Source: Bacillota bacterium
Lineage (GTDB): Bacteria > Bacillota > Dethiobacteria > DTU022 > UBA8154
Direction of reading: 5' to 3'
DNA: 64,000 nt
Assembly: GCA_012518675.1 (NCBI GenBank)
Contig: JAAYRR010000133.1
Location: forward strand, 7,015 to 71,014
The notes under the pieces were generated by a model. The model did no database searches. It was not told the DNA's origin and was given only the letters and a program-made list of their open reading frames with translations. The translations under genes were made by a program, and so were the position numbers. Shown here piece after piece: positions 9,117-64,000 of this stretch; the stretch's first letter is position 1; every line of letters starts with the position of its first letter.

Positions 9117-9590
9117 ATGAAAATTGGAGCCCGCACACTTAAAACAGGTTTGGCGATTACCCTGACCATTTTCTTAGTAGTTGGGGATATTTCACATGCA
9201 AATATAAATTTGTTTAAAAGATACCGGCGTGCAATTAATGCTGTACAGTCAAACCTTGACAGGTTAATGGCCCTACCCAGGGGTATTGTTTTTATGCATG
9301 GCGGTTCAAAGTACTCTAAATTGCGGCAAGAGTTATATGAATATCTTCAATATTTATTAGCCCTGCATAAAAAAATTTATGACTGTATAGTTTTTAATAA
9401 AGGTTATCAAAAAGTTGAAAAAGACATAAATGCGGAAGAAATAAGAAAAAAAATAGTGAGATTCATTAAAACAGACAGCAACGACAATGTTTTTGAATTT
9501 TATAATATATATTTTGAAGCAACACGAATAAATGAAAAACTGGAACAGTTAAAAAATGAATTCGCATTGGATTTTTGTGGTACAGATTAA
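9117..9590 (+). CDS. Hypothetical 157-aa protein with one N-terminal TM helix and a Lys/Glu-rich helical tail
   Basis: AT-rich ORF with GGTGA RBS. Its stop overlaps the MATE ATG as TAATG, which points to translational coupling. The N-terminus MKIGARTLKTGLAITLTIFLVV resembles the first helix of FUSC/aromatic-acid-exporter (UPF0421) proteins, but the remainder is unrelated and shorter. Confidence 0.45.
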   Translation: MKIGARTLKTGLAITLTIFLVVGDISHANINLFKRYRRAINAVQSNLDRLMALPRGIVFMHGGSKYSKLRQELYEYLQYLLALHKKIYDCIVFNKGYQKVEKDINAEEIRKKIVRFIKTDSNDNVFEFYNIYFEATRINEKLEQLKNEFALDFCGTD

Positions 9591-14428: not shown

Positions 14429-15094
14429 TTGCCGGCCGAAAGCAAAAGAAACTTAAACAAAAAAATAAACTGTTCAAATCAACAAAAAATACTGCAAATC
14501 CTTGCCAAGGAATACCCGCAGGTAACAACACTTTTAAAATACAGCAGTCCCTTTGAATTGCTTTTAGCGGTAATACTTTCTGCCCAGACCACAGACAAAC
14601 AAGTTAACAAAGTCACAGAAAAACTGTTCAAAATAATAAAGGAGCCCCGCGATGTTTTGCAGTTGGGTCCGGCCCGTCTGGAAAAAATGATTAAAGGATG
14701 TGGCTTGTATCGCCAGAAAAGCCGCCAGATTTTAGAAACATCCCGCCTTTTATGTATAAAGTTTGATGGCCGGGTACCACAAACCAGGGCAGAACTGCTG
14801 GAACTTCCCGGGGTGGGGCGCAAAACGGCAAATGTTGTTCTCAGCGTAGCTTTTGATATTCCTGCTTTTGCTGTAGACACCCATGTACAGCGGGTCAGCC
14901 GGCGGTTGGGGTTAAGCAAAGGGAAAAACGCCTTAGCCGTGGAAAAGGAAATTTGCAGCTTAGTACCTGCTGCGCTTTGGAAAAAAACCCACCGCCGGCT
15001 GATCGCCCATGGGCGCCAGGTGTGCCGTGCCCGGAACCCGCTGTGTGATTCCTGCCCCTTCAGCTCTTATTGCCCTACAGCCGGAAAGGAATAA
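14429..15094 (+). CDS. nth: Endonuclease III
   Basis: HhH-GPD motif LPGVGRKTANVVL and the C-terminal 4Fe-4S cluster loop C-x6-C-x2-C-x5-C (CRARNPLCDSCPFSSYC). Confidence 0.9.
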   Translation: MPAESKRNLNKKINCSNQQKILQILAKEYPQVTTLLKYSSPFELLLAVILSAQTTDKQVNKVTEKLFKIIKEPRDVLQLGPARLEKMIKGCGLYRQKSRQILETSRLLCIKFDGRVPQTRAELLELPGVGRKTANVVLSVAFDIPAFAVDTHVQRVSRRLGLSKGKNALAVEKEICSLVPAALWKKTHRRLIAHGRQVCRARNPLCDSCPFSSYCPTAGKE

Positions 15095-15330: not shown

Positions 15331-17328
15331 TCAGGTAACCAAAAATTCGGCGCTTTGTTTTTCTGTCAGAGGTATGTTTTTTTTCAGATATGCAAAAAAA
15401 TCTTCAATTTCCCGCGGCCCCATGGAATCCAGATCATCGAGTAAGGAGGGAAAAAGTGGAGGATAGATCTCATAAAGATATTCATACATTTTTTCCACCA
15501 TGAATTCGGTGTCAGGCATGGCACCCCAAATCTTCTGGAGATGTTCGGTAGACATAAAGACCGCCTGGCAGTAATCACGCATCGCCATCAAGATTTTTGT
15601 CATCTTTTCAGGCCATTTTAAATCACTTTTGTTTACTGTATAGAGTTCAACAGCCTTTTTTACAGCCGTTTCTTTCCATTCCAAAGCCTTTTCAATTTCT
15701 TGATACTGCGTTGTCAGATCTTCTCCTTTTTCTGCAGCGTACTGTTCCATGCCATACTGCAAGTAGCTAATCCGTCCGTCAATAAAAATTTCCAGCGTCC
15801 TGACCAGACCGACAATATTTCTTTCTTCAATTTTTTTCAGATCATGTTTAAAAATCATCCCTGCTGGGCTGTCCGCCATGCTTTGCAAGAGGGTTGTGCA
15901 AAACAAATACCCTTTCAAGCAGGGCAGTTTTTGCCGGCCCTCCGTAGGCCGCCAGCCCCAGTTGCAAGCCCTTTTCATAATACGCAGGTAGAGAATAGCC
16001 CGGCTTTCCGGGCTTTCCCGGGGAAGATCATAACCGGCAGCGCTTAAATGTTCTCCGTGTACCGGGATATCCGGGAAAATACGGAAATTATCGGCTAATG
16101 TATCAAAGATGCCACAAAAATACTTGCCGTTTTCCCAAAAAACATGGGGGTGACGGTACAGGCCTGTTTTTTCCAGATCGTAACGACCTACATCGGTGAC
16201 ACCCAGAGGGGGGTAGTGACCATCGACCCTTAAAATCAACCTAATCTCCGGGGCCCAGGTCATTTCTTCAAATTCCAGCACCGGTAACTTTTCCAGGACC
16301 CCTCCCTGCAGGGTGGCATCAATATATTCGTCGGGAGTTACAAAATAAACCTGCAGATCGTCCCTTGTCTCCTGCAAAACCTCTTTCCAGGCCTGTTCCA
16401 TAATAATCAAAGCCAAGTCACCAAAGTCCATCAATTCCAGATCCTGAATATGAACCAGCACGCCATCGGGCGGGGCCTTTTCCAATTCTGCGTGCAATAC
16501 TTTTTTATAAAGCTCTATGCCGGCCTCTCTGGTAATAGGAAATTCCTCATGTTCCTGGTGGAGGTATTCATTCCCGAAAACAGGGTATTTCCCCAACATA
16601 TACCCCTGAAATTTAACATCTTCCCGTTTCATTTTCGTGATCGGGCGCCATATTTCCTGGGAAATGGGAAAATTACGGGGCAGAGCAAGCAGTTCCCCTT
16701 GGCTGGTTTTTAAGCGAAATGGTTTGTAGCGGTAATCACCTTCGCCCTGTAAACGAAAAGGTGCTTTTACTGTACTAAGATGTGGGAAAATAACATAGTC
16801 TATGTTTGCCTTTTTTATACCCGACATCTTATGGTAACTATAAGAGGCTTCCGGTGAAAAAAGGCCGTTGTATTTGGGATAAGGAACCTGCATATAATTA
16901 TGCAGAAACTGCCTATTCCAAAGAATTTCCTGAGTGATTTCCTTTTCTTGGAGCAAAGAAACATGCGTATGGTGCGCATGGCCGTAGAGGGGGTAAAGCC
17001 TGCCCCGAGCATAGCCCTCCTTCAGTTTTTGAAAGGCAGCAGGTACAACATTCTCAATCTGATGTAAAAGTTCATTGGAATATTCTACACATAAGGGCGC
17101 ATGCAAACTGTCACCAAATTCTATACTCTGGGAATAAATATCCCGTCCTTCTTCTTTCCTTTTTTGCATATAATTTTCATCTAAAATAGTTTTTTTCATA
17201 GGGTTTTGCTCATCCAAAGAAGAAAGCAGTATTTCCGGTAAATCCCAAAGCAGTTCATGGGCATGAAAAGCTAAAATAACATAAACTTTTTTCAAAAACA
17301 GGCCACCTCCAACTATCTTAGTTGTCAA
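15331..17328 (-). CDS. Large cytoplasmic protein of uncertain family, possibly GH57-like glycoside hydrolase (665 aa)
   Basis: Confident as a coding ORF. N-terminal ILAFHAHE, a W-A-P-E segment and a DGH segment loosely fit GH57 motifs (HxH, WLPE nucleophile, acid/base region). The family assignment is tentative. Confidence 0.4.
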   Translation of the reverse strand: MTTKIVGGGLFLKKVYVILAFHAHELLWDLPEILLSSLDEQNPMKKTILDENYMQKRKEEGRDIYSQSIEFGDSLHAPLCVEYSNELLHQIENVVPAAFQKLKEGYARGRLYPLYGHAHHTHVSLLQEKEITQEILWNRQFLHNYMQVPYPKYNGLFSPEASYSYHKMSGIKKANIDYVIFPHLSTVKAPFRLQGEGDYRYKPFRLKTSQGELLALPRNFPISQEIWRPITKMKREDVKFQGYMLGKYPVFGNEYLHQEHEEFPITREAGIELYKKVLHAELEKAPPDGVLVHIQDLELMDFGDLALIIMEQAWKEVLQETRDDLQVYFVTPDEYIDATLQGGVLEKLPVLEFEEMTWAPEIRLILRVDGHYPPLGVTDVGRYDLEKTGLYRHPHVFWENGKYFCGIFDTLADNFRIFPDIPVHGEHLSAAGYDLPRESPESRAILYLRIMKRACNWGWRPTEGRQKLPCLKGYLFCTTLLQSMADSPAGMIFKHDLKKIEERNIVGLVRTLEIFIDGRISYLQYGMEQYAAEKGEDLTTQYQEIEKALEWKETAVKKAVELYTVNKSDLKWPEKMTKILMAMRDYCQAVFMSTEHLQKIWGAMPDTEFMVEKMYEYLYEIYPPLFPSLLDDLDSMGPREIEDFFAYLKKNIPLTEKQSAEFLVT

Positions 17329-18289: not shown

Positions 18290-19351
18290 TTATTTTTCCA
18301 GCGGCCCGTCAACCCCCGCGCCGGAAAAAGTAGCCATTTCATGTAATATTTTTACTGAAGCCTCGATAATATTCATGGCGAGAGCGGCACCTGTCCCCTC
18401 CCCCAAGCGCATATTCATAAAAAGTATGGGCTTTATGCCGATCATTTCTAGCATTTTTTTATGCCCTGGTTCGTCCGACAAATGTGAGGAAAGCAGGTAA
18501 CCCCTGACATACGGTTGCAAAGCAGTGGCTACCAAAGCGGCGGCCCCAGATATAAAACCATCTAAAACCACTGGAACCCGAAATGTTGCTCCTGCCAAAA
18601 TTACGCCTACAAGACCGGCAATTTCCAGCCCCCCAACTTTGGCCAAAGCTTCCAAAGGTTTTGCCGCCACCGGCGAATTTATTTTCAGGGCCTTTTCAAT
18701 GGCCTTTATTTTTTGTTTTAAAAGGGCATCGCTGGCCCCTGTTCCCCGGCCTGTAATACTTTCCACAGGAACACCTGAAAAAACTGCAAGTAGGGCCGTA
18801 CTGGCAGCCGTATTACCAATACCCATTTCCCCTATACCCAATAGATCGCTACCCTTTGAAAGGCAGCCCCGGGCCACTTCAAAACCTGTTTCAATCGCCT
18901 TTAAAGTCTGTGCGACAGTCATCGCCGGCCCCTTGGACATATTTTGGGTCCCGTAGGCAACCTTCCTGCTTAGAAGCAGAGGATGATCTTTAAAGTCAGC
19001 AGCCACGCCAACATCTACAATCAAAAGTTCTGCGCCTACATGACGTGAAAAAACATTCATGGCCGCCCCCCCGCTTAAAAAATTATAAACCATTTGGGCA
19101 GTTACCTCCTGGGGGTAAACATTGAAACCCTCCTCCAGAATACCGTGATCCCCTGCCATCAGAATACATGTTTTTTTGGTAATGGTAGGCAGTGCTTGAC
19201 CGGTGATCCCGGCAATTTTTTTGGCGATCTGCTCCATCACTCCCAGGCTGCCTTTGGGCTTCGTCAGATCATCTAACCGGGCTTGCGTCTGAGCCATGGC
19301 CTCCTCTTTTAAAGGTTTAATTTGAGCCAGCACCTTTTCCAGCTTAAACAT
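18290..19351 (-). CDS. cobT: Nicotinate-nucleotide--dimethylbenzimidazole phosphoribosyltransferase
   Basis: N-terminal DDLTKPKGSLG CobT hallmark, 353 aa, AAAGGGGG RBS. Confidence 0.9.
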   Translation of the reverse strand: MFKLEKVLAQIKPLKEEAMAQTQARLDDLTKPKGSLGVMEQIAKKIAGITGQALPTITKKTCILMAGDHGILEEGFNVYPQEVTAQMVYNFLSGGAAMNVFSRHVGAELLIVDVGVAADFKDHPLLLSRKVAYGTQNMSKGPAMTVAQTLKAIETGFEVARGCLSKGSDLLGIGEMGIGNTAASTALLAVFSGVPVESITGRGTGASDALLKQKIKAIEKALKINSPVAAKPLEALAKVGGLEIAGLVGVILAGATFRVPVVLDGFISGAAALVATALQPYVRGYLLSSHLSDEPGHKKMLEMIGIKPILFMNMRLGEGTGAALAMNIIEASVKILHEMATFSGAGVDGPLEK

Positions 19352-19770: not shown

Positions 19771-19815
19771 ACCATCATCCCCTCACCTGCAAAAACCAGG
19801 CAGGTGCATACAGCT

Positions 19816-20000
19816 AAAGGCAGGTCTCCTGGCTTCCGGATCAAAACTTGTTTACTACACCTTAGTCCCTTCCCATTCCCCTTCCCTTTACGGTTAGGAA
19901 ACAGTGGCTTTGGCTGCAGCTCCCCGGTTACAGTGGCGGGACCGCGCAGGAATTACACCTGTCTTCCCTATTCTCCGCTAAAAACGGCACCTTTAGCAAC
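19816..20000 (-). promoter_or_regulatory. Cobalamin (AdoCbl) riboswitch aptamer
   Basis: The minus strand reads AAAGGTGCC...AATAGGGAAG...GGTGTAATTCC...GCGCGGTCCCGCCACTGTAACCGGGGAGC...GCCACTG...GGGAAGG...AGCCAGGAGACCTGCC. All canonical cobalamin-riboswitch core elements are present and in order, including the B12 box. Confidence 0.8.
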
Positions 20001-20015
20001 AATATTATTTGCTTT

Positions 20016-23121: not shown

Positions 23122-23131
23122 TTTAAAATAT

Positions 23132-23505
23132 GCATGAGCAAACCTGTAAGCCGAGTTCTGTTCTCCTTAAAAGGAGCGGCAGCCATCTATCTAGGGCGCC
23201 AGTTGCCTGGCTCCTCCAGCGACTCACACCCGAGGGATTCGGCGGGCAACGTCATCTCCCTCCTATTCAGTCTTGCTCCGGGTGGGGTTTACCTAGCAGG
23301 CCGGTCACCCGGCCCCTGGTACGCTTTTACCGTACCGTTGCACCCTTACCCGGATAAAAAATAAATTTTTTACCCGGGCGGTTTATTTCTGTGGCACTAT
23401 CCTTGGGGTCGCCCCCACTGGGCGTTACCCAGCACCCTGCCCTGCGGAGCTCGGACTTTCCTCGGAAGTCATACTTACCCCCGCGACTGCCTAGTTTACT
23501 CATGT
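23132..23505 (-). ncRNA. rnpB: RNase P RNA, bacterial type A
   Basis: The minus strand contains GAGGAAAGTCCGAGCTCCGCAGGGCAGGGTGCTGGGTAACGCCCAGTGGGGGCGACCCCAAGGATAGTGCCACAGAAA...GGGTAAGGGTGCAACGGTACGGTAAAAGCGTACC...ACAGAACTCGGCTTACAGG, nearly collinear with E. coli M1 RNA conserved regions. The P1 ends pair. Confidence 0.85.
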
Positions 23506-27542: not shown

Positions 27543-27872
27543 CTATAAAAGTTGTGTATCTTGCGGTTGTGCAGCTTGAGGCTGCTGTGTAACTTGGGTC
27601 TGTTCTTGGGGCTGTTTCGGGGCCGGTTGCTGGACCAGGTGAGCAGGTTGCAACTGGCCTCCGGCCAGCTGGGTTTCAACCTGTTGAATCATTTTCCTAA
27701 CCATAGTCCCGCCAACATAGCCGTTTTGTCGGGAGGTTAGCTCCCCCCTGTCTATACCAGTGTAGTTAGGAATGCCCAGTTCATTGGCGATTTCCTCTTT
27801 GAAGTTTTCCAAAGCCTGTTCTGCACCTGACACCAATATTCTATTACGTCCGGGTCTGGCTCTGTTTGGCAT
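27543..27872 (-). CDS. Alpha/beta-type small acid-soluble spore protein with a Gln/Pro-rich C-terminal extension
   Basis: Core matches alpha/beta SASP (GAEQALENFKEEIANELGI...GYVGGTMVRKMIQQVETQLAGG). A low-complexity tail of about 40 aa (QPAPKQPQEQTQVTQQPQAAQPQ) follows. GGGAGGTG RBS. Confidence 0.85.
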   Translation of the reverse strand: MPNRARPGRNRILVSGAEQALENFKEEIANELGIPNYTGIDRGELTSRQNGYVGGTMVRKMIQQVETQLAGGQLQPAHLVQQPAPKQPQEQTQVTQQPQAAQPQDTQLL

Positions 27873-28368: not shown

Positions 28369-28396
28369 GTTCCAGATACAAGCGCAACATTTTTGC
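28369..28396 (+). terminator. Rho-independent terminator after rpmB
   Basis: AAGCGCAA-CATTT-TTGCGCTT followed by TTTTT. Confidence 0.7.
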
Positions 28397-28878
28397 GCTT
28401 TTTTATTATATCCTTTATTTTGCCCTTTAGTGTTTTCCCAACAACCCTATTATAATACGGCTGATAAACCGGGGCAATTTAATAACATAAAATTTCATTT
28501 TACCGTCCTCCCTTTCTCATTTAATCCCCAACCCTCTTATTTGCCTGGCCAGTCAAATTATTATAATACAGTATATAGCCGCCAACCCAACCAGATCAGA
28601 AAAAAACCTATTAATAGGGGCCACAAATACAGGGGCAGAGCGCTTACAACCAACCCTATGCCGGCAACTGCGATAAAAACACCACCGCACCTGCGAAAAA
28701 AACTGTTGAAACGGTACCTTCTCAGCTGTAACACCCCCGTTTTTCGGGTTTATTGCATTATATGTAATCCGGACAAAAAGGGTTAAAAACGTTTACTTAT
28801 TTTCAATTTGGGGATATGGTATAATATAGGTTGTAAATTAATTGTGCCTTCAAAGTGTCATGAAAGGGTGAAAAATAG

Positions 28879-29198: not shown

Positions 29199-30647
29199 AT
29201 GGATCCTGCCAACCTCTCTGTACAGCAGATTACTGCTAAAATTAATAAAAAAGAACTTTTATTGACTGAACTGGGAGCAATACTGGCCGGCCGCAGCAAA
29301 TACGCACAAAAAAAATTAAACCTTTTTATATCTTTTGATCCGCAGCTGTTCACTGAACAAATTAAAAAGAATGAACAAAGCACGCAAGTTAACCGTCCCC
29401 CCCTTTGGGGCGTACCTGTAGCCATAGCCGACAACATTACCACAGTAGATCAAAAAACAACCTGCGCTTCCCGGCTGCTGGCTGCTTACCAACCCCCCTT
29501 TGAAGCACAGGCCGTTTCCCTGCTGCAAGAAAATGGCGCTTTACTCATCGGTAAAACAAATTTAGAGGAATTTGGCCTTGGTTGTGCCGGCAACAGCTCT
29601 TATTTTAAACCGGTAAAAAACCCCTGGGACATAAAACGTACTGCCGGCAGCGGCGCAGCGGCAGCCGTCGCCAGCGGCCTGGCAACCTTTGCCCTGGCCA
29701 GCGACGTACGTGGAGAAATAAGACAAGCAGCCTCCTATTGTGGTGTTATAGCCTTAAAACCAACTTATGGGAAAATTCCCCGTGAAGGTTTAATCGACAG
29801 CGCTTCTTCCCTGGAACAAACCGGTATTTTAGCCCGGCGGGTTTCAGATTTAGCCTGGGCCTTGCAGGTTCTTGCCGTGCCGGGGAACAATAACCCCCCG
29901 GCGGTAAAGAGGCCCCTGTACCCAGAAATTTTGGGAAATATTCCCGCAAAAACACGCATTGCTGTTCCTGCCGACTGGGACCAAGCACCGCTCCTGGAGG
30001 AGGGGATTAAAAATAACTTCCGGGAACAGCTTAACAAATTGGCCCGGGTTGGCTTGGAGATCAACTATGTTACCCTGCCCCATTTTCAATACGCCTCCCT
30101 GGTAGCCACCATAATCGGTGCCGTCGAGGCTTTTTCCAACCTATCCAACTTAGATGGGGTGCGCTTTGGATACAGGAAGGAAGGCAAACACCTGCAAGAA
30201 ATGTATATCAAAACCCGCAGTGCAGGTTTTAGTAGTAAATTAAAAAAATTTCTTACTTTGGGAGGGTTGCTTTCCACCAAAAAATATTATAACAGCCACT
30301 TCCTACAGGGACAAAAAATGCGGAGTATAATCAAAAAGGAGCTATTAGACTGCCTGCAAGAAAACGAATTACTTCTGACACCGACAACACCTTGCAACGC
30401 AATATTATTAGACAGCAGCCCACCAGCTGGGGAGGAGCTGCCCGATCCTGCAGCCTATTATACGGCAGCGGCCAATCTTGCCGGTTTCCCCTCCCTGAAT
30501 TTCCCTGTCAGCACCAACGGGCTGCCCTACGGCCTACAATTTATGGCCAAAAAGGAAGATGAAGGGGTTTTATTACAAATAGCTTTTCTGCTTGAAAAAG
30601 AACCTATAAAATGGCCAATTTTTGCGCTAGAATTGCAGGAGGTGTAA
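29199..30647 (+). CDS. gatA: GatA-like amidotransferase subunit A with degenerate amidase signature (probable pseudo-glutaminase)
   Basis: Collinear with GatA (GKTNLEEF..., RFGYR, TPTTP). In the amidase signature region, GGSSGGSAAAVAAG...LGSDTGGSIRQP is replaced by AGSGAAAAVASG...LASDVRGEIRQA: the nucleophile Ser is Glu and the Gly-rich loop is altered. Confidence 0.8.
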   Translation: MDPANLSVQQITAKINKKELLLTELGAILAGRSKYAQKKLNLFISFDPQLFTEQIKKNEQSTQVNRPPLWGVPVAIADNITTVDQKTTCASRLLAAYQPPFEAQAVSLLQENGALLIGKTNLEEFGLGCAGNSSYFKPVKNPWDIKRTAGSGAAAAVASGLATFALASDVRGEIRQAASYCGVIALKPTYGKIPREGLIDSASSLEQTGILARRVSDLAWALQVLAVPGNNNPPAVKRPLYPEILGNIPAKTRIAVPADWDQAPLLEEGIKNNFREQLNKLARVGLEINYVTLPHFQYASLVATIIGAVEAFSNLSNLDGVRFGYRKEGKHLQEMYIKTRSAGFSSKLKKFLTLGGLLSTKKYYNSHFLQGQKMRSIIKKELLDCLQENELLLTPTTPCNAILLDSSPPAGEELPDPAAYYTAAANLAGFPSLNFPVSTNGLPYGLQFMAKKEDEGVLLQIAFLLEKEPIKWPIFALELQEV

Positions 30648-33199: not shown

Positions 33200-34015
33200 T
33201 TAGCGTTGTATTTCAAGCCAATCCTTATCTTCTTTTTCCAGCTTACCAAGCAGATACGGGTTTAAAACCCTTAAATAGGTTCCCTTCATACCCAAAGAAT
33301 GGGTTTCAATTACGCCTGCACTTTTAAGTTTTCGCAAGGCATTAACAATTACCGACCTGGTAATATTCAATTTATCAGCAACCTTACTGGTCACAATCAG
33401 GCCCTCATTTGCTTCTAATTCTTTAAATACCCGGACCGCTGCTTCCAATTCAGAATACGACAGCGCCCCTATCGCTTGCTGTACGGCAGCCTTGTTTCTG
33501 ATTTTTTCTTCGGTTATTCCTGATTCTAAATTTAAGATTTCTATGCCTGCAACAGTAGCCACTGTCTCCGCAAGAATCAAATCACCTGTATCAAAAGGTT
33601 TGTGGGGACGAATTAAAATAAGAACCCCCAACCTTTTATTGCGGCCCAAAATAGGAACAAAGGTGGTAAATATATTTTTAAAAATACATGTTTCCGCCCT
33701 GTTAAAAATACATTTGTTATTACTTTGCGCCAAGTTTACCTTGCCCCGGCCTTCCAAGCCATACAACATAGGGTCTTGAAAGTTTTCCGGAAACTGTCCT
33801 TTCTTTAAGAAACCGTCCATCAGCCCACAACTGTATTCATTTACAAGTGCATACCGTAAAATTTTGCCTTCGGTATCAGTAATATATACGTTAGCATGAA
33901 TTACATTTTTTAAAACCTTGATTACTTCAAAATGCTTCACTTTTTGTTCTGTTTGCAGTGTTTTACGAATAAAACGAGTCTTTTCCAGCAAAGAAGAATT
34001 AATCACTTTTACCAC
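33200..34015 (-). CDS. CodY-family GAF/wHTH transcriptional regulator, paralog 1
   Basis: The C-terminal 100 aa is nearly identical to the B. subtilis CodY HTH region (ADKLNITRSVIVNALRKLKSAGVIETHSLGMKGTYLRVLN). ILAETVATVAGIEIL and AVQQAIGALSYSELEA are also present. The N-terminal GAF portion is diverged. Confidence 0.8.
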   Translation of the reverse strand: MVKVINSSLLEKTRFIRKTLQTEQKVKHFEVIKVLKNVIHANVYITDTEGKILRYALVNEYSCGLMDGFLKKGQFPENFQDPMLYGLEGRGKVNLAQSNNKCIFNRAETCIFKNIFTTFVPILGRNKRLGVLILIRPHKPFDTGDLILAETVATVAGIEILNLESGITEEKIRNKAAVQQAIGALSYSELEAAVRVFKELEANEGLIVTSKVADKLNITRSVIVNALRKLKSAGVIETHSLGMKGTYLRVLNPYLLGKLEKEDKDWLEIQR

Positions 34016-34146
34016 CTCACTTTTTTTCTATATAAGGGTAATTTTTGTTAAAGGGACCTCCTTTTTGCCAAAAGAGCTGGAAGGAAGAACAAAAACAGAG
34101 GCCCCTGTAACAAAATAAGGGATCTTTCTGACAAATAACTGTAAAA

Positions 34147-35730
34147 TTATTCTACCTTCTCACCAATTTTACGTAATTTAAACCGCTGTATTTTCCCGGT
34201 TGCACTCTTGGGCAGTTCAGAAACAATTTCTACAAAGCGGGGGTATTTAAATTTGGCCAACCGATCCAAGGACCACTGTTTGAGTTCGTTTATTAGTTCA
34301 TCCGAACCGGTAAAGCCTTCCTTAAGTACCACAAAAGCTTTGGGTTTAATTAAATTTTTATGATCAGGGTACCCGATCACTGCACATTCCAGCACCGCAG
34401 GATGTTCAATCAGGCAACCTTCCACTTCTACCGGTGAAACCCAGATACCGCCAACTTTCAGCATGTCATCGTCCCTGCCCGCACAATGGTAATAACCATT
34501 TTCGTCTTGGTAGTAAGTGTCCCCAGTGTTCAGCCATTCACCTTGCATCGTAGAACGGGTTTTTTCCACCTTACGCCAATAATTTTGGGCAGCACTGCGG
34601 CCCTTCACATGCAGGGTTCCGATTTCGCCCTGTGGTACTTCCTTCCCTTCATTATCAACAATCCTTATTTCATACCCGGGAACAGGCTTCCCGGTTGCGC
34701 CCGGTTTAATGTCGCCAGGTCTGTTGGAAATATAGATATGCAACATTTCTGTTGAACCGATACCATCCAAAATATCGATACCAAAACGTTCCTTCCAGCG
34801 GCGGATGATATCTACCGGCAAAGCCTCACCTGCCGACACACATAATCTTACGGAAGTTAGTTCGTGATCGTTGGGATCCGCCTTGGCACCTGTTTCCTTT
34901 TCTTGGCGAGCCTTGTATTCAAGCATCTGCCCGTAGAGGGTGGGTACACCAAAGAAAATTGTAGGACGGAAACGTTCAATGTGACTAAATACACTTTCGG
35001 GAGTCGGGCGGGATTTGTTTAAAATCACTGAACCGCCTACAGCCAAGGGGAAAAACAAACCGTTCCCGATACCATAGGCAAAAAATAACCGGGCTGCTGA
35101 AAAACAGATATCATTTTCATTCATTCCCAAAACTCCCTGGGCAAAATTTTCAGAAGCAACCAGGGGGCTTTCCATACAGTGTACAGCTCCCTTGGGGGGG
35201 CCTGTTGAACCTGAACTGTAAAGCCAGAACCCTACATCGTCCTTGGTTGTTTTCACAGTTTCCAAAATAGGAGAAGCATTTTTTACCTTTTGCCTGAAGG
35301 GGATTAACGGTTCATCATCTGCAACAACAATCATATCCCTAAGGTAAAGCAGATCACCTTTAATATCATTAATCAACGGTACCAGGTCTTCCGATATAAT
35401 CAAGGCCTTGGCCCGGCTGTCGTTAAGTAAGTATTCATAATCGTTGGGTGTAAGCATGGTGTTGATTGGAATGGGCACAGCCCCAATTTTCATGGCACCG
35501 AAAAACATTACAAGAAATTGAGGTTCATCCAGCATCATGAGCATAATGCGATCATCTATACCCAAACCCATTTCACGAAAAGCGTTGCCGGTTTTATTGG
35601 CCATTTCCTGCAGTTCGCTATAAGTGTAGTTGCGCCTTTCAGTATAAATGGCAACTTTATGACCTCTTCCCTGCCGAATATTTCTATCTAAAAAATAATC
35701 TGCCGCGTTAAAAAAAGGTTGGTTTTTCAT
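34147..35730 (-). CDS. Aromatic-acid--CoA ligase, benzoate-CoA ligase family (AMP-forming), copy 1
   Basis: AMP-binding motifs WLYSSGSTGPPKGAVH and GYGxTE-like GIGSTEMLH, the C-terminal ATGKIQR, and 527 aa, typical for BCL/4-hydroxybenzoate-CoA ligases. Confidence 0.75.
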   Translation of the reverse strand: MKNQPFFNAADYFLDRNIRQGRGHKVAIYTERRNYTYSELQEMANKTGNAFREMGLGIDDRIMLMMLDEPQFLVMFFGAMKIGAVPIPINTMLTPNDYEYLLNDSRAKALIISEDLVPLINDIKGDLLYLRDMIVVADDEPLIPFRQKVKNASPILETVKTTKDDVGFWLYSSGSTGPPKGAVHCMESPLVASENFAQGVLGMNENDICFSAARLFFAYGIGNGLFFPLAVGGSVILNKSRPTPESVFSHIERFRPTIFFGVPTLYGQMLEYKARQEKETGAKADPNDHELTSVRLCVSAGEALPVDIIRRWKERFGIDILDGIGSTEMLHIYISNRPGDIKPGATGKPVPGYEIRIVDNEGKEVPQGEIGTLHVKGRSAAQNYWRKVEKTRSTMQGEWLNTGDTYYQDENGYYHCAGRDDDMLKVGGIWVSPVEVEGCLIEHPAVLECAVIGYPDHKNLIKPKAFVVLKEGFTGSDELINELKQWSLDRLAKFKYPRFVEIVSELPKSATGKIQRFKLRKIGEKVE

Positions 35731-36241
35731 TATTTATCCCCCCACTAAGTTGAATTTAATACACTAAGATTCCCAGAAAATCTTCCAGCCCTGTTTCCCT
35801 GCTCATTAAATAATTTTATATTGACAAAATACACCTTAAATTTTACATTACCCTACCCCCTCTTTGATGCTTGAAATATGTTAAAAAACTAGATATTTTT
35901 CTCAAAATTGCCTGAAAATATTTTTCTTGCGGGAAAAGGTTCACTGCTTTAAAAAATTCAAAGAGTCAAACTTCTTTTATTGTTATACCATGCAAGATAA
36001 GTACCATTAAAGTACATTTTTCTTCTAATTGCGATAGAACCGTAACCAGACCAGCCTTGATTATTCTTCCTGGCCTGCCTACCCATGTAAAATGTAGGTC
36101 ATTTTTGAAATTTAATTTTGAAAGATTGCAATATTGAAATGTATGTTAATGTTGTTTTTTTGCATTTTTTAGGGCTTTTGGAATCTTCAAACACTATTTA
36201 TTGTTCCCCTACTCGCTAATCTACAGATGCATAATGGACAT

Positions 36242-36266
36242 AAAAAAGCAGCTCCTGACGGAGCTA
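36242..36266 (-). terminator. Terminator (AGCTCC-GTCA-GGAGCT followed by T6 on the minus strand)
   Basis: Perfect 6-bp stem with a T-run, immediately downstream of the 70-aa ORF. Confidence 0.55.
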
Positions 36267-36306
36267 TCTTGGACACAATATTTTTTTTCGCTTAAATTTC
36301 CCAGCA

Positions 36307-36519
36307 CTACTCCCCGCTCATTTTTACAACGCTAATGAAAGAGTTCCCGGGGACCATTTCCCGACCACAGTTTAATTTTTCTGCTCCTGCCGCCATTTTT
36401 TTCTTTACGCCTGGCGCATCAAGTGTTTTTTCAATTTCTGAAAATTCCCTTAAAATATTGGAGAGTTTAACATCAACCAAGATCAGTTCTCTTTTCAATT
36501 TTTCAATTCTATTTAACAT
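36307..36519 (-). CDS. Hypothetical 70-aa helical protein (weak Spo0E-like resemblance)
   Basis: ORF sits between the CodY-like paralog 2 gene and a terminator. The IEKLKRELILV...SEIEKTLD pattern is reminiscent of Spo0E-family helical hairpins, but the signature is not exact. Confidence 0.35.
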   Translation of the reverse strand: MLNRIEKLKRELILVDVKLSNILREFSEIEKTLDAPGVKKKMAAGAEKLNCGREMVPGNSFISVVKMSGE

Positions 36520-36638
36520 TTTTACCCTTGCCTCCCGGATAAAAAATTATATTCTGCACATGCTTTCAATCTATTTTATAAGCCCTGGTCGGCAGTTTTT
36601 ACCACCGTTTTTGAATCCCGTAATTAATAAACGGCATG

Positions 36639-37451
36639 CTAGCGCATCCCAAGCCAATTTTTATCCTCTTTTTCCAGTCGATCCAGTAAATACGGGTTTA
36701 AGACCCTTAAATAGGTTCCTTTCATCCCCAGGGAATGAGTTTCTATTACGCCGGCACTTTTAAGCTTACGCAATGCGTTAACAATAACAGACCTGGTTAT
36801 GCTCAATTTATCTGCAACCTTGCTGGTCACAATCAAACCTTCATCTGTATCCAATTCTTTAAAAACTCGTACCGCTGCCTCCAACTCTGAATAGGACAGC
36901 GCTCCTATTGCTTGCTGCACGATCATCTTGTTTCTGATCTTCTTTTCAAGTTTTTCAGATTTTGAATTCAGAATTGACATCCCGGAAACCGTTGCCACTG
37001 TTTCAGCCAAAATTAAATCCCCGGTATCAAAAGGTTTCAGGGGACGGGTTAAAATTAGTGTTCCTATTCTTTTATTCTGGCCAATAATGGGCACCAGCGT
37101 TGTAAATATATTTTTAAAAACACAGTTTTCGGCCTGTGTAAATATGCACCTGCTAACTTCCTGTGTTAAATTTATCCTGCTTCGGTTGTCGATCCCATGC
37201 AACAGGGAATCCTGATATTTTTCAGTAAATTTGCCTTTTTTAAGGAACCTATCCAGAAGCTCACAACTGTATTCATCCACCAAGGCATGCCCCAAAATAA
37301 GACCATCGGTATCAATAATAAACACATTGGCATGAATGACGTTCTTTAAAACTTCAATTATTTCGAAGAGTTTTACCCCCTGTTCTGTTTGCAAAGTTTT
37401 GCGAATAAAGCGGGTTTTTTCCAACAAAGAAGAATTAAGCAATGTTATCAC
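36639..37451 (-). CDS. CodY-family GAF/wHTH transcriptional regulator, paralog 2
   Basis: About 75 percent identical to paralog 1. The C-terminal HTH is essentially identical, while the N-terminal GAF differs at many positions. Confidence 0.8.
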   Translation of the reverse strand: MITLLNSSLLEKTRFIRKTLQTEQGVKLFEIIEVLKNVIHANVFIIDTDGLILGHALVDEYSCELLDRFLKKGKFTEKYQDSLLHGIDNRSRINLTQEVSRCIFTQAENCVFKNIFTTLVPIIGQNKRIGTLILTRPLKPFDTGDLILAETVATVSGMSILNSKSEKLEKKIRNKMIVQQAIGALSYSELEAAVRVFKELDTDEGLIVTSKVADKLSITRSVIVNALRKLKSAGVIETHSLGMKGTYLRVLNPYLLDRLEKEDKNWLGMR

Positions 37452-37615
37452 CTCCTCAACTCCTTATGTTTATATTAAAAATAGAGGGGCCTCCTCTTTA
37501 ATGCAAACGCTGCCTAAACAAATAAAACGGAGGCCCCTGGTACCAAAAATCTGCACAATTATAAATATTTAACTATTGATATTTAACGGCTTTTGAACAA
37601 CCGTATCTTACTTGG

Positions 37616-39211
37616 TTATTTGGAAGCGGCGTCAGCCTTTTCACTTGCCAAGCGCAGTTTAAACCGCTGAATTTTGCCGGTTGCACTCTTGGGTAGTTCA
37701 GAAATAAATTCTATCCAACGCGGATACTTATATTTGGCCATCCGCTCCAGGGCAAACTGCTTCAGTTCATTGGCCAGCTCTTCAGAACCGGCCGATCCAT
37801 CCTTGAGCACAACATAAGCCTTGGGTTTAATTAAATTCTTTTCATCAGGATGCCCGATCACTGCAGATTCCAGAACAGCAGGGTGTTCAATTAAACAGGC
37901 TTCCACCTCAACCGGCGATACCCAGATACCGCCTACCTTCAGCATATCATCGCCCCTGCCGGCACAGCGGTAATAGCCTTCGTCGTCTACATAATAGCTG
38001 TCACCGGTATCAAGCCATTCCCCCCGCATTGTGGAACGGGTTTTATCTACCTTGCGCCAGTAATTCTGGGCGGCACTGCGGCCTTTTGCCAACAGCCTGC
38101 CTATTTCCCCCTGGGGAACCTCGTTCCCTTCATCATCGACAATTTTAATTTCATAACCAGGGACCGGTTTGCCGGAGGTACCGGGCCTGACATCACCGGG
38201 CAGGTTGGAAATATAGATGTGCAACATTTCTGTAGAGCCGATGCCGTCTAAAATATCTACGCCAAAACGTTCCTTCCAGCGGCGGAGAATATCTTCCGGC
38301 AGGGCTTCCCCGGCCGAAACACACATCCGTACAGAAGAAAGTTCGTGGACTTCAGGATCGGGATCTACACCCTTTTCCTTATCCTGGCGTGCCTTGTATT
38401 CAAGCATCTGCCCATACAAGGTGGGTACACCGAAGAAAAGGGTAGGCCGGAAACGTTCCAGTACGCTAAACACACTTTCGGGAGTCGGGCGGGATTTATT
38501 TAAAACCACTGATCCGCCGGCGGCCATGGGGAAAAACATGCTGTTACCGATACCGTAGGCAAAAAACAGCCGTGCTGCCGAAAAACAGATGTCATCCTCG
38601 GTTACCCCCAACACACCTTTGCCATAGTTTGTGGCGGCAACCAGCGGGCTTTCCATACAGTGCACAGCACCCTTGGGGGGGCCAGTAGAACCTGAGCTGT
38701 AAAGCCAAAATCCCACATCGTCCTTGGTTGTATATTCAGCATCCAAAATAGGAGAAGCGTTTTTGACTTTTTGTCGGAAAGGAACTTGTGGTTCATCATC
38801 AGAGACAACAATCATATCCCTGAGATAAAGAAGATCCCCTTTAATACCACTGATTAATGGTACCAGTTCTTCAGAAATTACCAGCGCCTTGGCCCGGCTG
38901 TCATTTAGCAGGTATTCATAGTCGCTAGGTGTAAGCATGGTGTTAATCGGAACAGGTACAGCACCGATTTTGATGGCACCGAAGTACATTACAAAAAATT
39001 GGGGTTCATCCAGCATCAACAGTATAATCCGGTCGCCGACTTCTAAACCCAGCTCACGGAAAGCGTTGCCTGTTTTGTTGGCCATTTCCTGAATTTCACT
39101 GTAAGTATAATTGCGCCTGTCGGTATAAATGGCAACCTTATGTCCCCTGCCCTGTCGAATGTTCCGATCTAAAAAATAATCCGCAATGTTAAAGAAAGAT
39201 TGATTTTTCAT
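37616..39211 (-). CDS. Aromatic-acid--CoA ligase, benzoate-CoA ligase family, copy 2
   Basis: About 80 percent identical to copy 1, with the same AMP-binding motifs, 531 aa. Confidence 0.75.
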   Translation of the reverse strand: MKNQSFFNIADYFLDRNIRQGRGHKVAIYTDRRNYTYSEIQEMANKTGNAFRELGLEVGDRIILLMLDEPQFFVMYFGAIKIGAVPVPINTMLTPSDYEYLLNDSRAKALVISEELVPLISGIKGDLLYLRDMIVVSDDEPQVPFRQKVKNASPILDAEYTTKDDVGFWLYSSGSTGPPKGAVHCMESPLVAATNYGKGVLGVTEDDICFSAARLFFAYGIGNSMFFPMAAGGSVVLNKSRPTPESVFSVLERFRPTLFFGVPTLYGQMLEYKARQDKEKGVDPDPEVHELSSVRMCVSAGEALPEDILRRWKERFGVDILDGIGSTEMLHIYISNLPGDVRPGTSGKPVPGYEIKIVDDEGNEVPQGEIGRLLAKGRSAAQNYWRKVDKTRSTMRGEWLDTGDSYYVDDEGYYRCAGRGDDMLKVGGIWVSPVEVEACLIEHPAVLESAVIGHPDEKNLIKPKAYVVLKDGSAGSEELANELKQFALERMAKYKYPRWIEFISELPKSATGKIQRFKLRLASEKADAASK

Positions 39212-62802: not shown

Positions 62803-64000
62803 TCAGTGTACTGCCGGCAGATATAACTTTAGCTCACCGCCATTGTTAAAGGTTTCCCTGCCCAGAAAACAATAGGCCGGCAGCCGTTGTTTTTGGGGCG
62901 CATCATGAACTCCCACTGGAAAATCGTAATAGGTTAAGTACACCTCCTGGAAGGAAAAATCCAGTCGGGGTGAGGCTGCATACCATTCTACACCCTGCAC
63001 CTGTTCAAAGGCCTTGGCAGGCGACAGAAGGGCGTAAAAACCAGGCGGCAACACTTTTCCGTCTTCCTGGTAGTAATAAGCTATAATACCCTTTCCTTCC
63101 TCGTAGTGCAAAACCACCGGCAGTTCCTGCAGGGAACCTTTGTGGGGAAGGTAAGACACCTCTACCAAGGCGCCTGCAGATGTTTCACGCAGCCTGCTTT
63201 CCAGGGTATCACCTTCCCTGACAGGAAAACCTTCATTAGTAAGGATTTCCTTGGCCCATTCCGGCGTAGCGATGGACCGGGCTTCGCTTTGCAGCATGGA
63301 AACAACAGTTTTCCGTGGTTTCCAGGCCTGGTTAATTTTTTCAACCGGCGTAGCGGTTTCAGCAGGCGTGGTTCTATAAAAAACTGGGGGCAGGCTAATC
63401 TTACCCGCAGCTTTAAAACTTCGCAGATTTTGTTCTACTTTAAAATCTGTTTCCGGCGGAGGTGTTTCTGCTTGGACGGCAGGGGGAACAGGTTCGTTGG
63501 GATCTTCCTTCGGTTCTGTTCCGACACCGGGTTCAGGTTCATTTGCCGGTTGCCCTGGCGCAGGAAAGACATCTCCGCCCGGGGGTATTGCAGGTGTTTC
63601 TCCGGCTCCTTCAGTTCCAACTCCCTCCAGCCCTGTTTCCGGCCCTGATGCGGGGGGTTTAACCGCAGGGCCTTCCTCAATTATCGAAGGAAAGGTTTCG
63701 CTGCTTGGAACCTGCCCGGCAGGCTTCTTTTGTTCGGTCATAGCTGTGTAAGGATCGGGGAGCTTATCATTTCCCAGGCCTGACCCAACCAGACCCCCGT
63801 TGTGGAACAAAGCCAGCGCCACAACCATAATCACTGTGGCAGCTGTGAGGGCATAATAGGAAAGGTGTTTTTGAGAAAATTTTAAAACGCCGGCGAACAG
63901 ATCGTTCGTTTTGTTTTTTTGGGTAACGTTCCCGCCTGTCCCCCAGCCTTTTTCCAGCAAAGACTGCCGGAGTTCGTCCTGAAAAGAAGAAGAGGACTGT
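62803..64000 (-). CDS. Membrane-anchored protein with Pro/Glu/Thr-rich linker and C-terminal globular domain; 5' end runs off the window
   Basis: The reading frame stays open to position 64000. It has a TM helix (YYALTAATVIMVVALALF) and a low-complexity linker. No family recognised; the topology is like an anti-sigma factor. Confidence 0.5.
   Translation of the reverse strand, partial: QSSSSFQDELRQSLLEKGWGTGGNVTQKNKTNDLFAGVLKFSQKHLSYYALTAATVIMVVALALFHNGGLVGSGLGNDKLPDPYTAMTEQKKPAGQVPSSETFPSIIEEGPAVKPPASGPETGLEGVGTEGAGETPAIPPGGDVFPAPGQPANEPEPGVGTEPKEDPNEPVPPAVQAETPPPETDFKVEQNLRSFKAAGKISLPPVFYRTTPAETATPVEKINQAWKPRKTVVSMLQSEARSIATPEWAKEILTNEGFPVREGDTLESRLRETSAGALVEVSYLPHKGSLQELPVVLHYEEGKGIIAYYYQEDGKVLPPGFYALLSPAKAFEQVQGVEWYAASPRLDFSFQEVYLTYYDFPVGVHDAPQKQRLPAYCFLGRETFNNGGELKLYLPAVH

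Follow-up and report, generated by a model that had tools for sequence, protein, structure and literature searches.

The DNA examined here is a 64,000-nucleotide stretch (the window, below) of contig JAAYRR010000133.1, from a Bacillota bacterium of the class Dethiobacteria. It contains three consecutive genes in the order gatC, gatA and gatB, whose products match the Pfam families GatC, Amidase, and GatB_N plus GatB_Yqey, respectively (Table 1). In the textbook view of GatCAB, a 30 Å ammonia tunnel links a glutaminase to a tRNA-dependent transamidase, with GatA taken to be the source of the ammonia. In this operon the gatA product has kept its fold, is still encoded between gatC and gatB and is under purifying selection, yet the residues of the amidase triad and those that bind glutamine are all gone. 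We refer to this protein as GatA*, and to its operon as gatCA*B or the star operon.

The operon is preceded by a terminator-like hairpin, upstream of which lies the gene for ribosomal protein L28 (rpmB); this suggests that gatCA*B forms a transcription unit of its own. A second hairpin directly follows the gatB stop codon and probably marks the end of the operon; although it was scored on the opposite strand, a palindrome of this kind could serve the plus strand too. We also searched the 565-nt leader of gatCA*B for a T-box, since such an RNA could name the tRNA that the operon serves. The Rfam scan of this leader returned neither a T-box nor any other element, at gathering scores or at E≤1.

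The best matches of the GatA* open reading frame (ORF) in the Protein Data Bank are GatA subunits (phmmer: A. aeolicus 3h0l_A, 5e-88; T. maritima, 5e-86; S. aureus 2df4_A, 1.6e-75). In these alignments the window reads 'AG---SGAAAAV' opposite 'PGGSSGGSAAAV', and 'DVRGEIRQA' opposite 'DTGGSIRQP'. Residues were mapped through HMMER pairwise and MAFFT alignments, and GatA positions are given in S. aureus numbering. An earlier note on this DNA had proposed that the nucleophile Ser is replaced by Glu and that the Gly/Ser-rich signature is lost together with the cis-Ser. Alignment with GatA and the amidase-signature family bears out both substitutions: Ser178 corresponds to Glu173, and Gly153-Ser154-Ser155 are deleted after Gly150. 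An error of alignment register is ruled out, as two MAFFT alignments give the same register as HMMER pairwise alignments against four GatAs of solved structure. The same note had considered the catalytic Lys to be retained, within the motif GKTNLEEF. This proved wrong: the lysine in question is Lys119 (S. aureus Lys121), which lies outside the triad, and the position of the true catalytic residue, Lys79, is held by Ala77. The loss of the triad is thus total rather than of two thirds, and the earlier observation understated it.

The changes extend to Tyr309, Arg358 and Asp425, the residues with which GatA binds glutamine (bioRxiv 10.1101/733030, citing Nakamura et al. 2006). All three are replaced in GatA*, the last within a shortened and remodelled loop, and HMMER alignments place a 5-residue deletion beside Ala419. 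The gatA* DNA is clean and in frame, and the changes are multi-nucleotide, the replacement of Ser by Glu taking at least two base changes. GatA* matches the amidase family profile PF01425 over practically its whole length (4e-89, 300 bits, profile positions 9-445 of 445), and falls short of the cutoff of the NCBIfam gatA equivalog TIGR00132 (371.5 against 481.1 bits). Instead of the PS00571-type Gly/Ser signature GGSSGGS...GSDxGGSIR, it reads AG---SGAAAAV...ASDVRGEIRQA, from which both serines are absent. GatA* is hence a GatA by its fold, its homology and its gatC-gatB setting, and is not one by the equivalog cutoff, the triad or the glutamine-binding residues. As far as sequence can tell, this shows a protein devoid of amidase function through the Ser-cisSer-Lys mechanism and devoid of the glutamine clamp. 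Because the triad and the Tyr/Arg/Asp clamp are all gone, GatA* is predicted to be unable to bind or hydrolyse glutamine, and would best be called a GatA-derived pseudoenzyme subunit. We also considered an alternative nucleophile, but the conserved cysteines of GatA* (in TTCAS and SYCG) occur in canonical GatAs too, and hence provide no new candidate.

Table 1. Features of the gatCA*B operon, with the altered GatA* residues and their S. aureus GatA equivalents
Feature	Position in window	Strand	Basis or remark
Terminator-like hairpin 3′ of rpmB	28380..28400	+	Follows the gene for ribosomal protein L28
gatC, 96 aa	28879..29169	+	Small subunit wrapping the GatA-GatB interface; Pfam PF02686 6e-12; TIGR00135 56.7 against a cutoff of 47.1
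gatA*, 482 aa	29199..30647	+	GatA-fold pseudoenzyme without amidase triad or glutamine-binding residues
Catalytic Lys79 to Ala77	GCC 29427..29429	+	GVPVAIADN against GIPxGIK79DN; alignment and DNA
Cis-Ser Ser154 lost; Gly153-Ser154-Ser155 of GGSSGGS deleted in frame	Gly150-Ser151 junction 29646..29651	+	Alignments and DNA
Nucleophile Ser178 to Glu173	GAA 29715..29717	+	Alignment and DNA
Glutamine-binding Tyr309 to Ala303	30105..30107	+	Alignment mapping
Glutamine-binding Arg358 to Phe351	30249..30251	+	Alignment mapping
Glutamine-binding Asp425 to Ala419; loop PAAYY replacing 'xSD425IxT'	30447..30461	+	HMMER, MAFFT
gatB, 480 aa	30652..32094	+	tRNA-dependent kinase/transamidase subunit, catalytically intact by sequence, of the divergent 'type-2' lineage
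14-bp GC-rich hairpin directly 3′ of the gatB stop codon	32096..32129	-	Scored on the minus strand

The GatA fold is clearly present, as the earlier note had stated. Indeed, an AlphaFold2 model of GatA* built on the clade alignment reaches a predicted local distance difference test score (pLDDT) of 91.4 and a predicted template-modelling score (pTM) of 0.93, and Foldseek matches it first to GatA chains (3h0l_A, 4wj3_A and 2df4_A; TM 0.89-0.90). Among the 69 columns that are at least 95% conserved in canonical GatA, GatA* keeps 49; the triad, the Gly-rich loop and substrate-binding positions are among the 20 that it has lost. In pairs of sequences that are unsaturated at synonymous sites (dS 0.26-0.43), gatA* has a ratio of nonsynonymous to synonymous substitution rates (dN/dS) of 0.19-0.23, whereas that of the neighbouring gatB is 0.055-0.07. 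GatA* changes three to four times more freely than GatB and yet is clearly constrained. Canonical operons show the opposite relation, the dN of GatA being lower than that of GatB.

Relatives of GatA* were sought among 5.8 billion proteins and, separately, in one genome per GTDB species. A protein identical to that of the window was recovered from an independent biogas-fermenter assembly of the European Nucleotide Archive (ENA). The triad-less state is found in about 61 protein clusters, ranging from 100% to 37% identity, after which the next matches (about 36% identity) are canonical GatAs with GGSSGGS...GGSIRQP. The scan of GTDB species yielded about 35-37 loci in this state, mostly from Dethiobacteria. 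All 61 clade members carry the 3-residue deletion. None has Ser at the nucleophile position, which is occupied by Glu (53), Gly (7) or Asn (1), and Lys is never found at the position of Lys79 (Ala in 40, Gly in 14, Glu in 3, Ser in 2, Asp in 1, and one gap), where 58 of 59 canonical GatAs have it. Read across the six key sites, 53 canonical loci give 'KSSYRD', against [A/G/S/E/D]-gap-[E/G/N/A]-[A/T/G]-[F/Y/L]-variable for the star clade. The gene order is gatC-gatA*-gatB throughout: gatC lies upstream in every locus and gatB downstream in all but one, where the contig reaches. These loci come from soda-lake sediments, a serpentinite observatory (CROMO), a Tomsk aquifer and many metagenome-assembled genomes (MAGs) from biogas reactors. 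Their records are labelled as Dethiobacteria, Dethiobacter or Bacillota, or bear (mis)binned names, and their proteins are annotated as 'amidase family protein' by NCBI and as GatA by JGI. Separately, an otherwise canonical GatA (P0110) has Ala at the nucleophile position (GGAIRQP), which may reflect either an error of sequencing or one more naturally dead form.

GatC and GatB had been described as textbook in the earlier note. For GatB this is true of its catalytic core: the window protein scores 667 bits against the NCBIfam GatB equivalog (cutoff 338), and E10, H12, K79, Y81, K88, E124, E125, E150, N194, S196, E210 and K212 are kept in 30 of 30 star GatBs (K88 in 27 of 30). These are the residues that we take to be functional (S. 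aureus numbering), in part from the GatB and GatE literature and for the rest from PMC2330236. The description fails elsewhere in the protein, which is divergent. Seven sites that are invariant in 27 canonical GatBs are altered in most or all star GatBs (P84A, R120Q, A127T, Q243P, E262F/L/Y, Y269C and D274N). The tail of the window GatB contains a Lys-rich segment, YHNGKNKALGF, recognised by eye in its phmmer alignment with the S. aureus protein, that would fit KxGKxK, the tRNA-binding motif of the GatB tail (PMC2811023).

The seven GatB changes are also present in a small group of Desulforudis/Peptococcaceae-type operons (L035, L039, L040, L052 and L058). In a neighbour-joining tree without support values, star GatBs group with the GatBs of this type, apart from those of the canonical operons of Dethiobacteria. 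This 'type-2' GatB lineage includes operons with a putatively active GatA as well as operons with a putatively dead one. The triad is intact in the GatAs of L052, L058 and L039, and GatA* shares derived motifs with the type-2 group, such as AEAFSNLSNFD in place of the canonical EASSNLARYD. In Desulforudis sp. Kmv41 (L035:7033-8514; P0067) a gene lying between gatC and gatB encodes a GatA in which Lys79 is replaced by Ala, Ser154 by Pro and Ser178 by Ala, GGSSGGS having become GGPGWAP, and in which Arg358 and Asp425 are retained. This loss of the triad, in another Firmicutes lineage, is independent of that of the star clade. The GatA of a further MAG, 'bacterium SBF912LR0HQ0128' (L040:9893-11194), looks like an intermediate: it has the star-type 3-residue deletion and Gln in place of Lys79, and it keeps Ser178 and Tyr309. 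Its operon directly follows ligA, with an ORF of about 720 aa further upstream. A recent tandem duplication of the canonical operon as the origin of gatCA*B is unsupported, star GatB standing outside the canonical GatBs of Dethiobacteria, both in the neighbour-joining tree without support values and by its seven common substitutions.

The earlier note had also raised the possibility that the operon is a second, non-catalytic gatCAB paralog. This is shown for Dethiobacter-like relatives. A 12.9 kb JGI contig (L086) carries canonical gatC-gatA-gatB, followed by nth, lonC, a DUF503 gene, an acylphosphatase gene, a helix-turn-helix gene and mobB, and then by gatC-gatA*-gatB; all six key residues are present in its canonical GatA. 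In Dethiobacter sp. Tomsk_51_21 (L017) a second gatB fragment lies 9 kb upstream of gatCA*B. Another locus (L089), with the order pur operon, ligA, comFB, canonical gatCAB, nth and lonC and, further along, mobB, encodes a GatB that is 100% identical to this fragment, and the two therefore represent one organism with both operons. Three further pairings of a canonical with a star operon are implied by contigs of identical length (P0253 with L021, P0255 with P0046, and P0259 with P0037). All five two-operon cases fall within one Dethiobacter-like subclade, where the canonical gatCAB stands beside ligA, 7-12 kb upstream of the star operon on the same contig. The ligA-gatCAB arrangement is common to Atribacterota and L040, and none of the star loci has ligA upstream. 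Within one genome, the GatAs of the two operons are 40% identical and the GatBs 53%. Between one pair of genomes, identity in the canonical operon is 80% for GatA and 73.5% for GatB, and in the star operon 64% for GatA* and 87% for GatB.

That GatA* is a glutaminase-dead scaffold subunit, as the earlier note predicted, is well supported by the intact fold, the missing triad and glutamine pocket, the purifying selection and the constant location between gatC and an intact gatB. We propose, with a probability of about one half, that GatA* is the non-catalytic scaffold of a free-ammonia-dependent amidotransferase, which would be a second isoform wherever a canonical gatCAB coexists. GatA* would be retained as the structural partner needed by GatB and GatC, perhaps still supplying the ammonia tunnel. 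The GatC-GatA*-GatB complex would phosphorylate and amidate Glu-tRNA(Gln) and/or Asp-tRNA(Asn) in GatB, with ammonia taken from the cytoplasm (free NH3/NH4+) and not from a glutaminase site. It is known that a stable complex requires both GatC and GatA (PMC4027206; PMC2330236), and that tRNA-dependent amidotransferases such as yeast GatFAB can use NH4Cl for transamidation once the glutaminase is bypassed (PMC4027206). Beside the canonical GatCAB, the star complex could be an ammonia-using isoform suited to soda lakes, serpentinite waters and high-ammonia digesters, alkaline or ammonia-rich habitats in which NH3 is abundant, and direct use of ammonia would spare the ATP cost of glutamine synthesis.

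It is also possible, if rather unlikely, that gatCA*B is the sole and obligately ammonia-dependent amidotransferase of the window organism and of the Contubernalis group, the canonical gatCAB having been lost. The window contains ordinary housekeeping genes, and none of its approximately 40 annotated ORFs is a second gatA, asnS, glnS or asnB. The ENA contig of the same organism reaches about 38 kb beyond the window upstream; the approximately 10 kb of it that we read hold genes for a peptidase, NamZ and an sbcCD-like product, and no canonical gatA. In this organism no canonical gatCAB is found within about 40 kb upstream or 32 kb downstream of gatCA*B, a distance to be compared with the 7-12 kb of the Dethiobacter-like relatives. 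Its nth gene (14429..15094) is preceded by an adenine deaminase gene and not by the canonical operon, which nth follows in the relatives, and its lonC-spoU is inverted, at 53-57 kb. The canonical operon is hence not nearby in the window organism, unlike in the Dethiobacter-like genomes, and it is to the latter that the second-paralog claim applies. The complete genome of Candidatus (Ca.) Contubernalis alkaliaceticus (CP054699) also carries gatCA*B. No protein from its 3.56 Mb contig appears among the 120 best relatives of a Dethiobacter canonical GatA, a list in which other Firmicutes classes are represented by complete genomes; this is suggestive, not conclusive, of the absence of a canonical GatA. 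Furthermore, within the same genome pair star GatB is the better conserved, its N-terminal part being 87% identical and that of canonical GatB 81%, and one lineage has its canonical gatB truncated to the cradle domain. However, absence from about 100 kb of a several-megabase genome proves nothing, the Contubernalis result extends to the best 120 relatives only, and every case with informative neighbouring sequence had both operons. If gatCA*B were indeed the only enzyme, Gln and/or Asn codons would be served by an enzyme running wholly on free ammonia. It would then be the first GatCAB to be naturally devoid of a glutaminase, and a case of translation adapted to NH3-rich, energy-poor niches (soda lakes, serpentinite fluids, high-ammonia digesters).

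The truncated gatB could also be read as a sign that subunits are mixed between operons, the canonical one giving the glutaminase GatA (with GatC) and the star one the tRNA-binding GatB, with GatA* as a decaying or regulatory competitor; this we hold to be improbable. The short gene encodes 303 aa, comprising the cradle domain only, and follows canonical gatC-gatA in two independent assemblies: L090:11484-12395, from the biogas Dethiobacteria-like MAG GCA_012728375.1, and L091:1882-2793, from a Logan assembly. In both a fumarase gene starts immediately after it. Removal of the C-terminal part of S. aureus GatB abolishes tRNA binding (PMC2811023), and the reciprocal conservation of the two operons, the canonical GatA and the star GatB being the better conserved subunit of each, would fit such an exchange. 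Contrary to this, the divergence of both subunits between operons makes cross-assembly doubtful. Besides, gatC* and gatA* are always kept beside gatB, and GatA* is under purifying selection and has clade-specific motifs across a deep clade (to 37% identity), unlike a mere relic.

We are equally sceptical that the complex has left tRNA transamidation altogether, and that it sequesters tRNA, has a regulatory function or acts on another GatB substrate, possibly linked to arginine or carbamoyl phosphate. The seven GatB substitutions at otherwise invariant sites would be in line with such a change, as would the genomic context of the Contubernalis group. In Ca. Contubernalis (L001:1782-16619) and in two soda-lake MAGs (L024 and L029), the order is argC-argJ-argB-argD-carB-[gatCA*B]-argF-argG-argH, and no carA, the gene for the glutaminase subunit, precedes carB. 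Since gatA* is dead too, this operon holds two glutaminase-less amidotransferase modules. The genes arg or carB are also found near the star operon in L031 and L037. Nevertheless, the arginine linkage is missing from the window and from most loci, the Mg2+, ATP and catalytic residues of GatB are all kept, its Lys-rich tail segment is visible, and the same seven substitutions occur in L052, L058 and L039, where the GatA triad is intact. As for carA, the Contubernalis group is the only one to lack it beside carB. A lineage-wide loss of glutaminase subunits is unsupported: L031 has carA-carB, and related genomes keep the glutaminase domain of PurF. At two other loci (L018:3544-9502 and L013:1-3840) a gene divergent from gatCA*B encodes a CarB-like ATP-grasp protein, 49% identical to the CarB of Contubernalis; it adjoins a DUF1786 gene and a nicotinate phosphoribosyltransferase gene, and no carA lies beside it.

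Finally, the chance that GatA* is an artefact, whether of sequencing, of assembly or of alignment register, or else a pseudogene in decay, is close to nil: we found nothing in favour of it, and against it stand the intact ORF, a 100% identical protein in an independent assembly, the concordance of HMMER and MAFFT alignments, in-frame and multi-nucleotide changes that are common to 61 clusters, a dN/dS of about 0.2 and a confident AlphaFold model.

The ammonia-dependent isoform that we favour has points against it as well. Ammonia use and the tRNA substrate are predictions, as is the GatC-GatA*-GatB complex, which operon conservation and purifying selection support indirectly, and a star complex that stands beside a canonical GatCAB need not work as an amidotransferase. 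PurF with a glutaminase domain in related genomes implies that glutamine amidotransfer has not been abandoned lineage-wide, and biogas reactors are only mildly alkaline. Two points are the main ones to be left unexplained. The seven GatB substitutions indicate some functional shift that is not interpretable here. The other is the variability of Glu173: since 8 of the 61 members of the clade have Gly or Asn there, the case for an essential new catalytic or ammonium-binding residue is weakened. A degenerate subunit in a paralogous operon is the ordinary part of our explanation; the physiological role is the part that we infer.

Elsewhere in the window, a two-gene unit of codY and an AMP-binding acyl-CoA synthetase-like gene occurs as a tandem duplicate (33200-39211, minus strand), with codY at 33200-34015 and 36639-37451 and its partner at 34147-35730 and 37616-39211. 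A cobalamin riboswitch (19802-20009, minus strand, 104 bits) precedes a DBI_PRT/CobT-type phosphoribosyltransferase gene (18290-19351), and a bacterial class A RNase P RNA is found at 23131-23502 (minus strand, 308 bits). Three ORFs had no Pfam match at E≤0.001 (15331-17328, minus strand, 665 aa; 62803-63960, minus strand, 385 aa; 9117-9590, plus strand, 157 aa). Upstream of rpmB, a 109-aa ORF (27543-27872, minus strand) resembles by eye a small acid-soluble spore protein whose C-terminal tail is long and rich in Gln and Pro.

Comparison with known systems helps to place gatCA*B. It resembles canonical GatCAB (S. aureus 2DF4/2F2A, A. aeolicus 3H0L, T. maritima 3AL0) in operon order, GatA fold (TM 0.9), GatB catalytic residues and Lys-rich tail, and differs from it in the absence of Lys79, Ser154, Ser178, Tyr309, Arg358 and Asp425 from GatA and in the seven lineage substitutions of GatB. 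The mechanism that we propose, a GatB reaction on free ammonia with the GatA site bypassed, is the one seen in amidotransferases assayed with NH4Cl, such as yeast GatFAB (PMC4027206). Those, however, concern laboratory conditions or mutants, whereas the dead site of gatA* is natural, ancient, much remodelled and conserved across a clade. Tse8, a type VI secretion effector of P. aeruginosa, also has a GatA fold in which Tyr309, Arg358 and Asp425 are not conserved, and has been proposed to act by binding the transamidosome and not through GatA chemistry (10.1101/733030). Unlike GatA*, this secreted toxin keeps the triad, and its gene does not lie between gatC and gatB.

The Foldseek matches of GatA* include AtzE-AtzG, another GatA-derived amidase fold that works with a GatC-like partner outside the canonical role. 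In AtzE the triad is still active and acts on a new substrate, and there is no GatB. The reverse applies to gatCA*B, which has lost the triad and kept GatB. Harpel and colleagues reportedly found in 2002 that a Ser-to-Ala mutant of the S. pyogenes GatA nucleophile lost glutaminase activity and kept ammonia-dependent transamidation. The large subunit CarB alone is a further ammonia-dependent form of an amidotransferase family. Several gatCAB operons per genome are found in Firmicutes such as Clostridium acetobutylicum. To our knowledge, the GatAs of those paralogs are catalytically intact, and some of the operons are regulated by a T-box. The star operon has in common with them that, in Dethiobacter-like relatives, there is more than one gatCAB per genome, and is set apart by its dead GatA and by the lack of a T-box in the window leader. 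AtzE-AtzG has been described as a 'vestigial protein complex' (1-carboxybiuret hydrolase, PDB 6C62/6C6G). NAD synthetase NadE likewise has ammonia-dependent and glutamine-dependent forms (PMC3376133), its synthetase module occurring with or without a glutaminase partner depending on the lineage. In the NadE and CarB families, however, the glutaminase domain is simply absent, whereas in gatCA*B it is kept as a dead structural subunit.

Full-text literature searches returned no account of a GatA that naturally lacks the triad within a gatCAB operon. The accessible parts of the Contubernalis genome paper and of the D. alkaliphilus proteome supplements held nothing decisive, with one GatCAB among the entries listed. 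What emerges is a clade of anaerobic Firmicutes that keeps GatC, GatA and GatB under selection with all glutaminase residues erased. It offers a natural experiment on the roles of GatA beyond glutamine hydrolysis (scaffolding, tunnel, coupling to GatB), and a concrete test case for whether free ammonia can feed translation in vivo. It also calls for caution in annotation, as metabolic reconstructions may err where they take a 'gatCAB' of Dethiobacteria to depend on glutamine. Furthermore, the GatAs described here form a graded series for the passage from catalytic subunit to pseudoenzyme, from intact (L052, L058, L039) through partial (L040) and independent loss (L035) to the full loss of the star clade.

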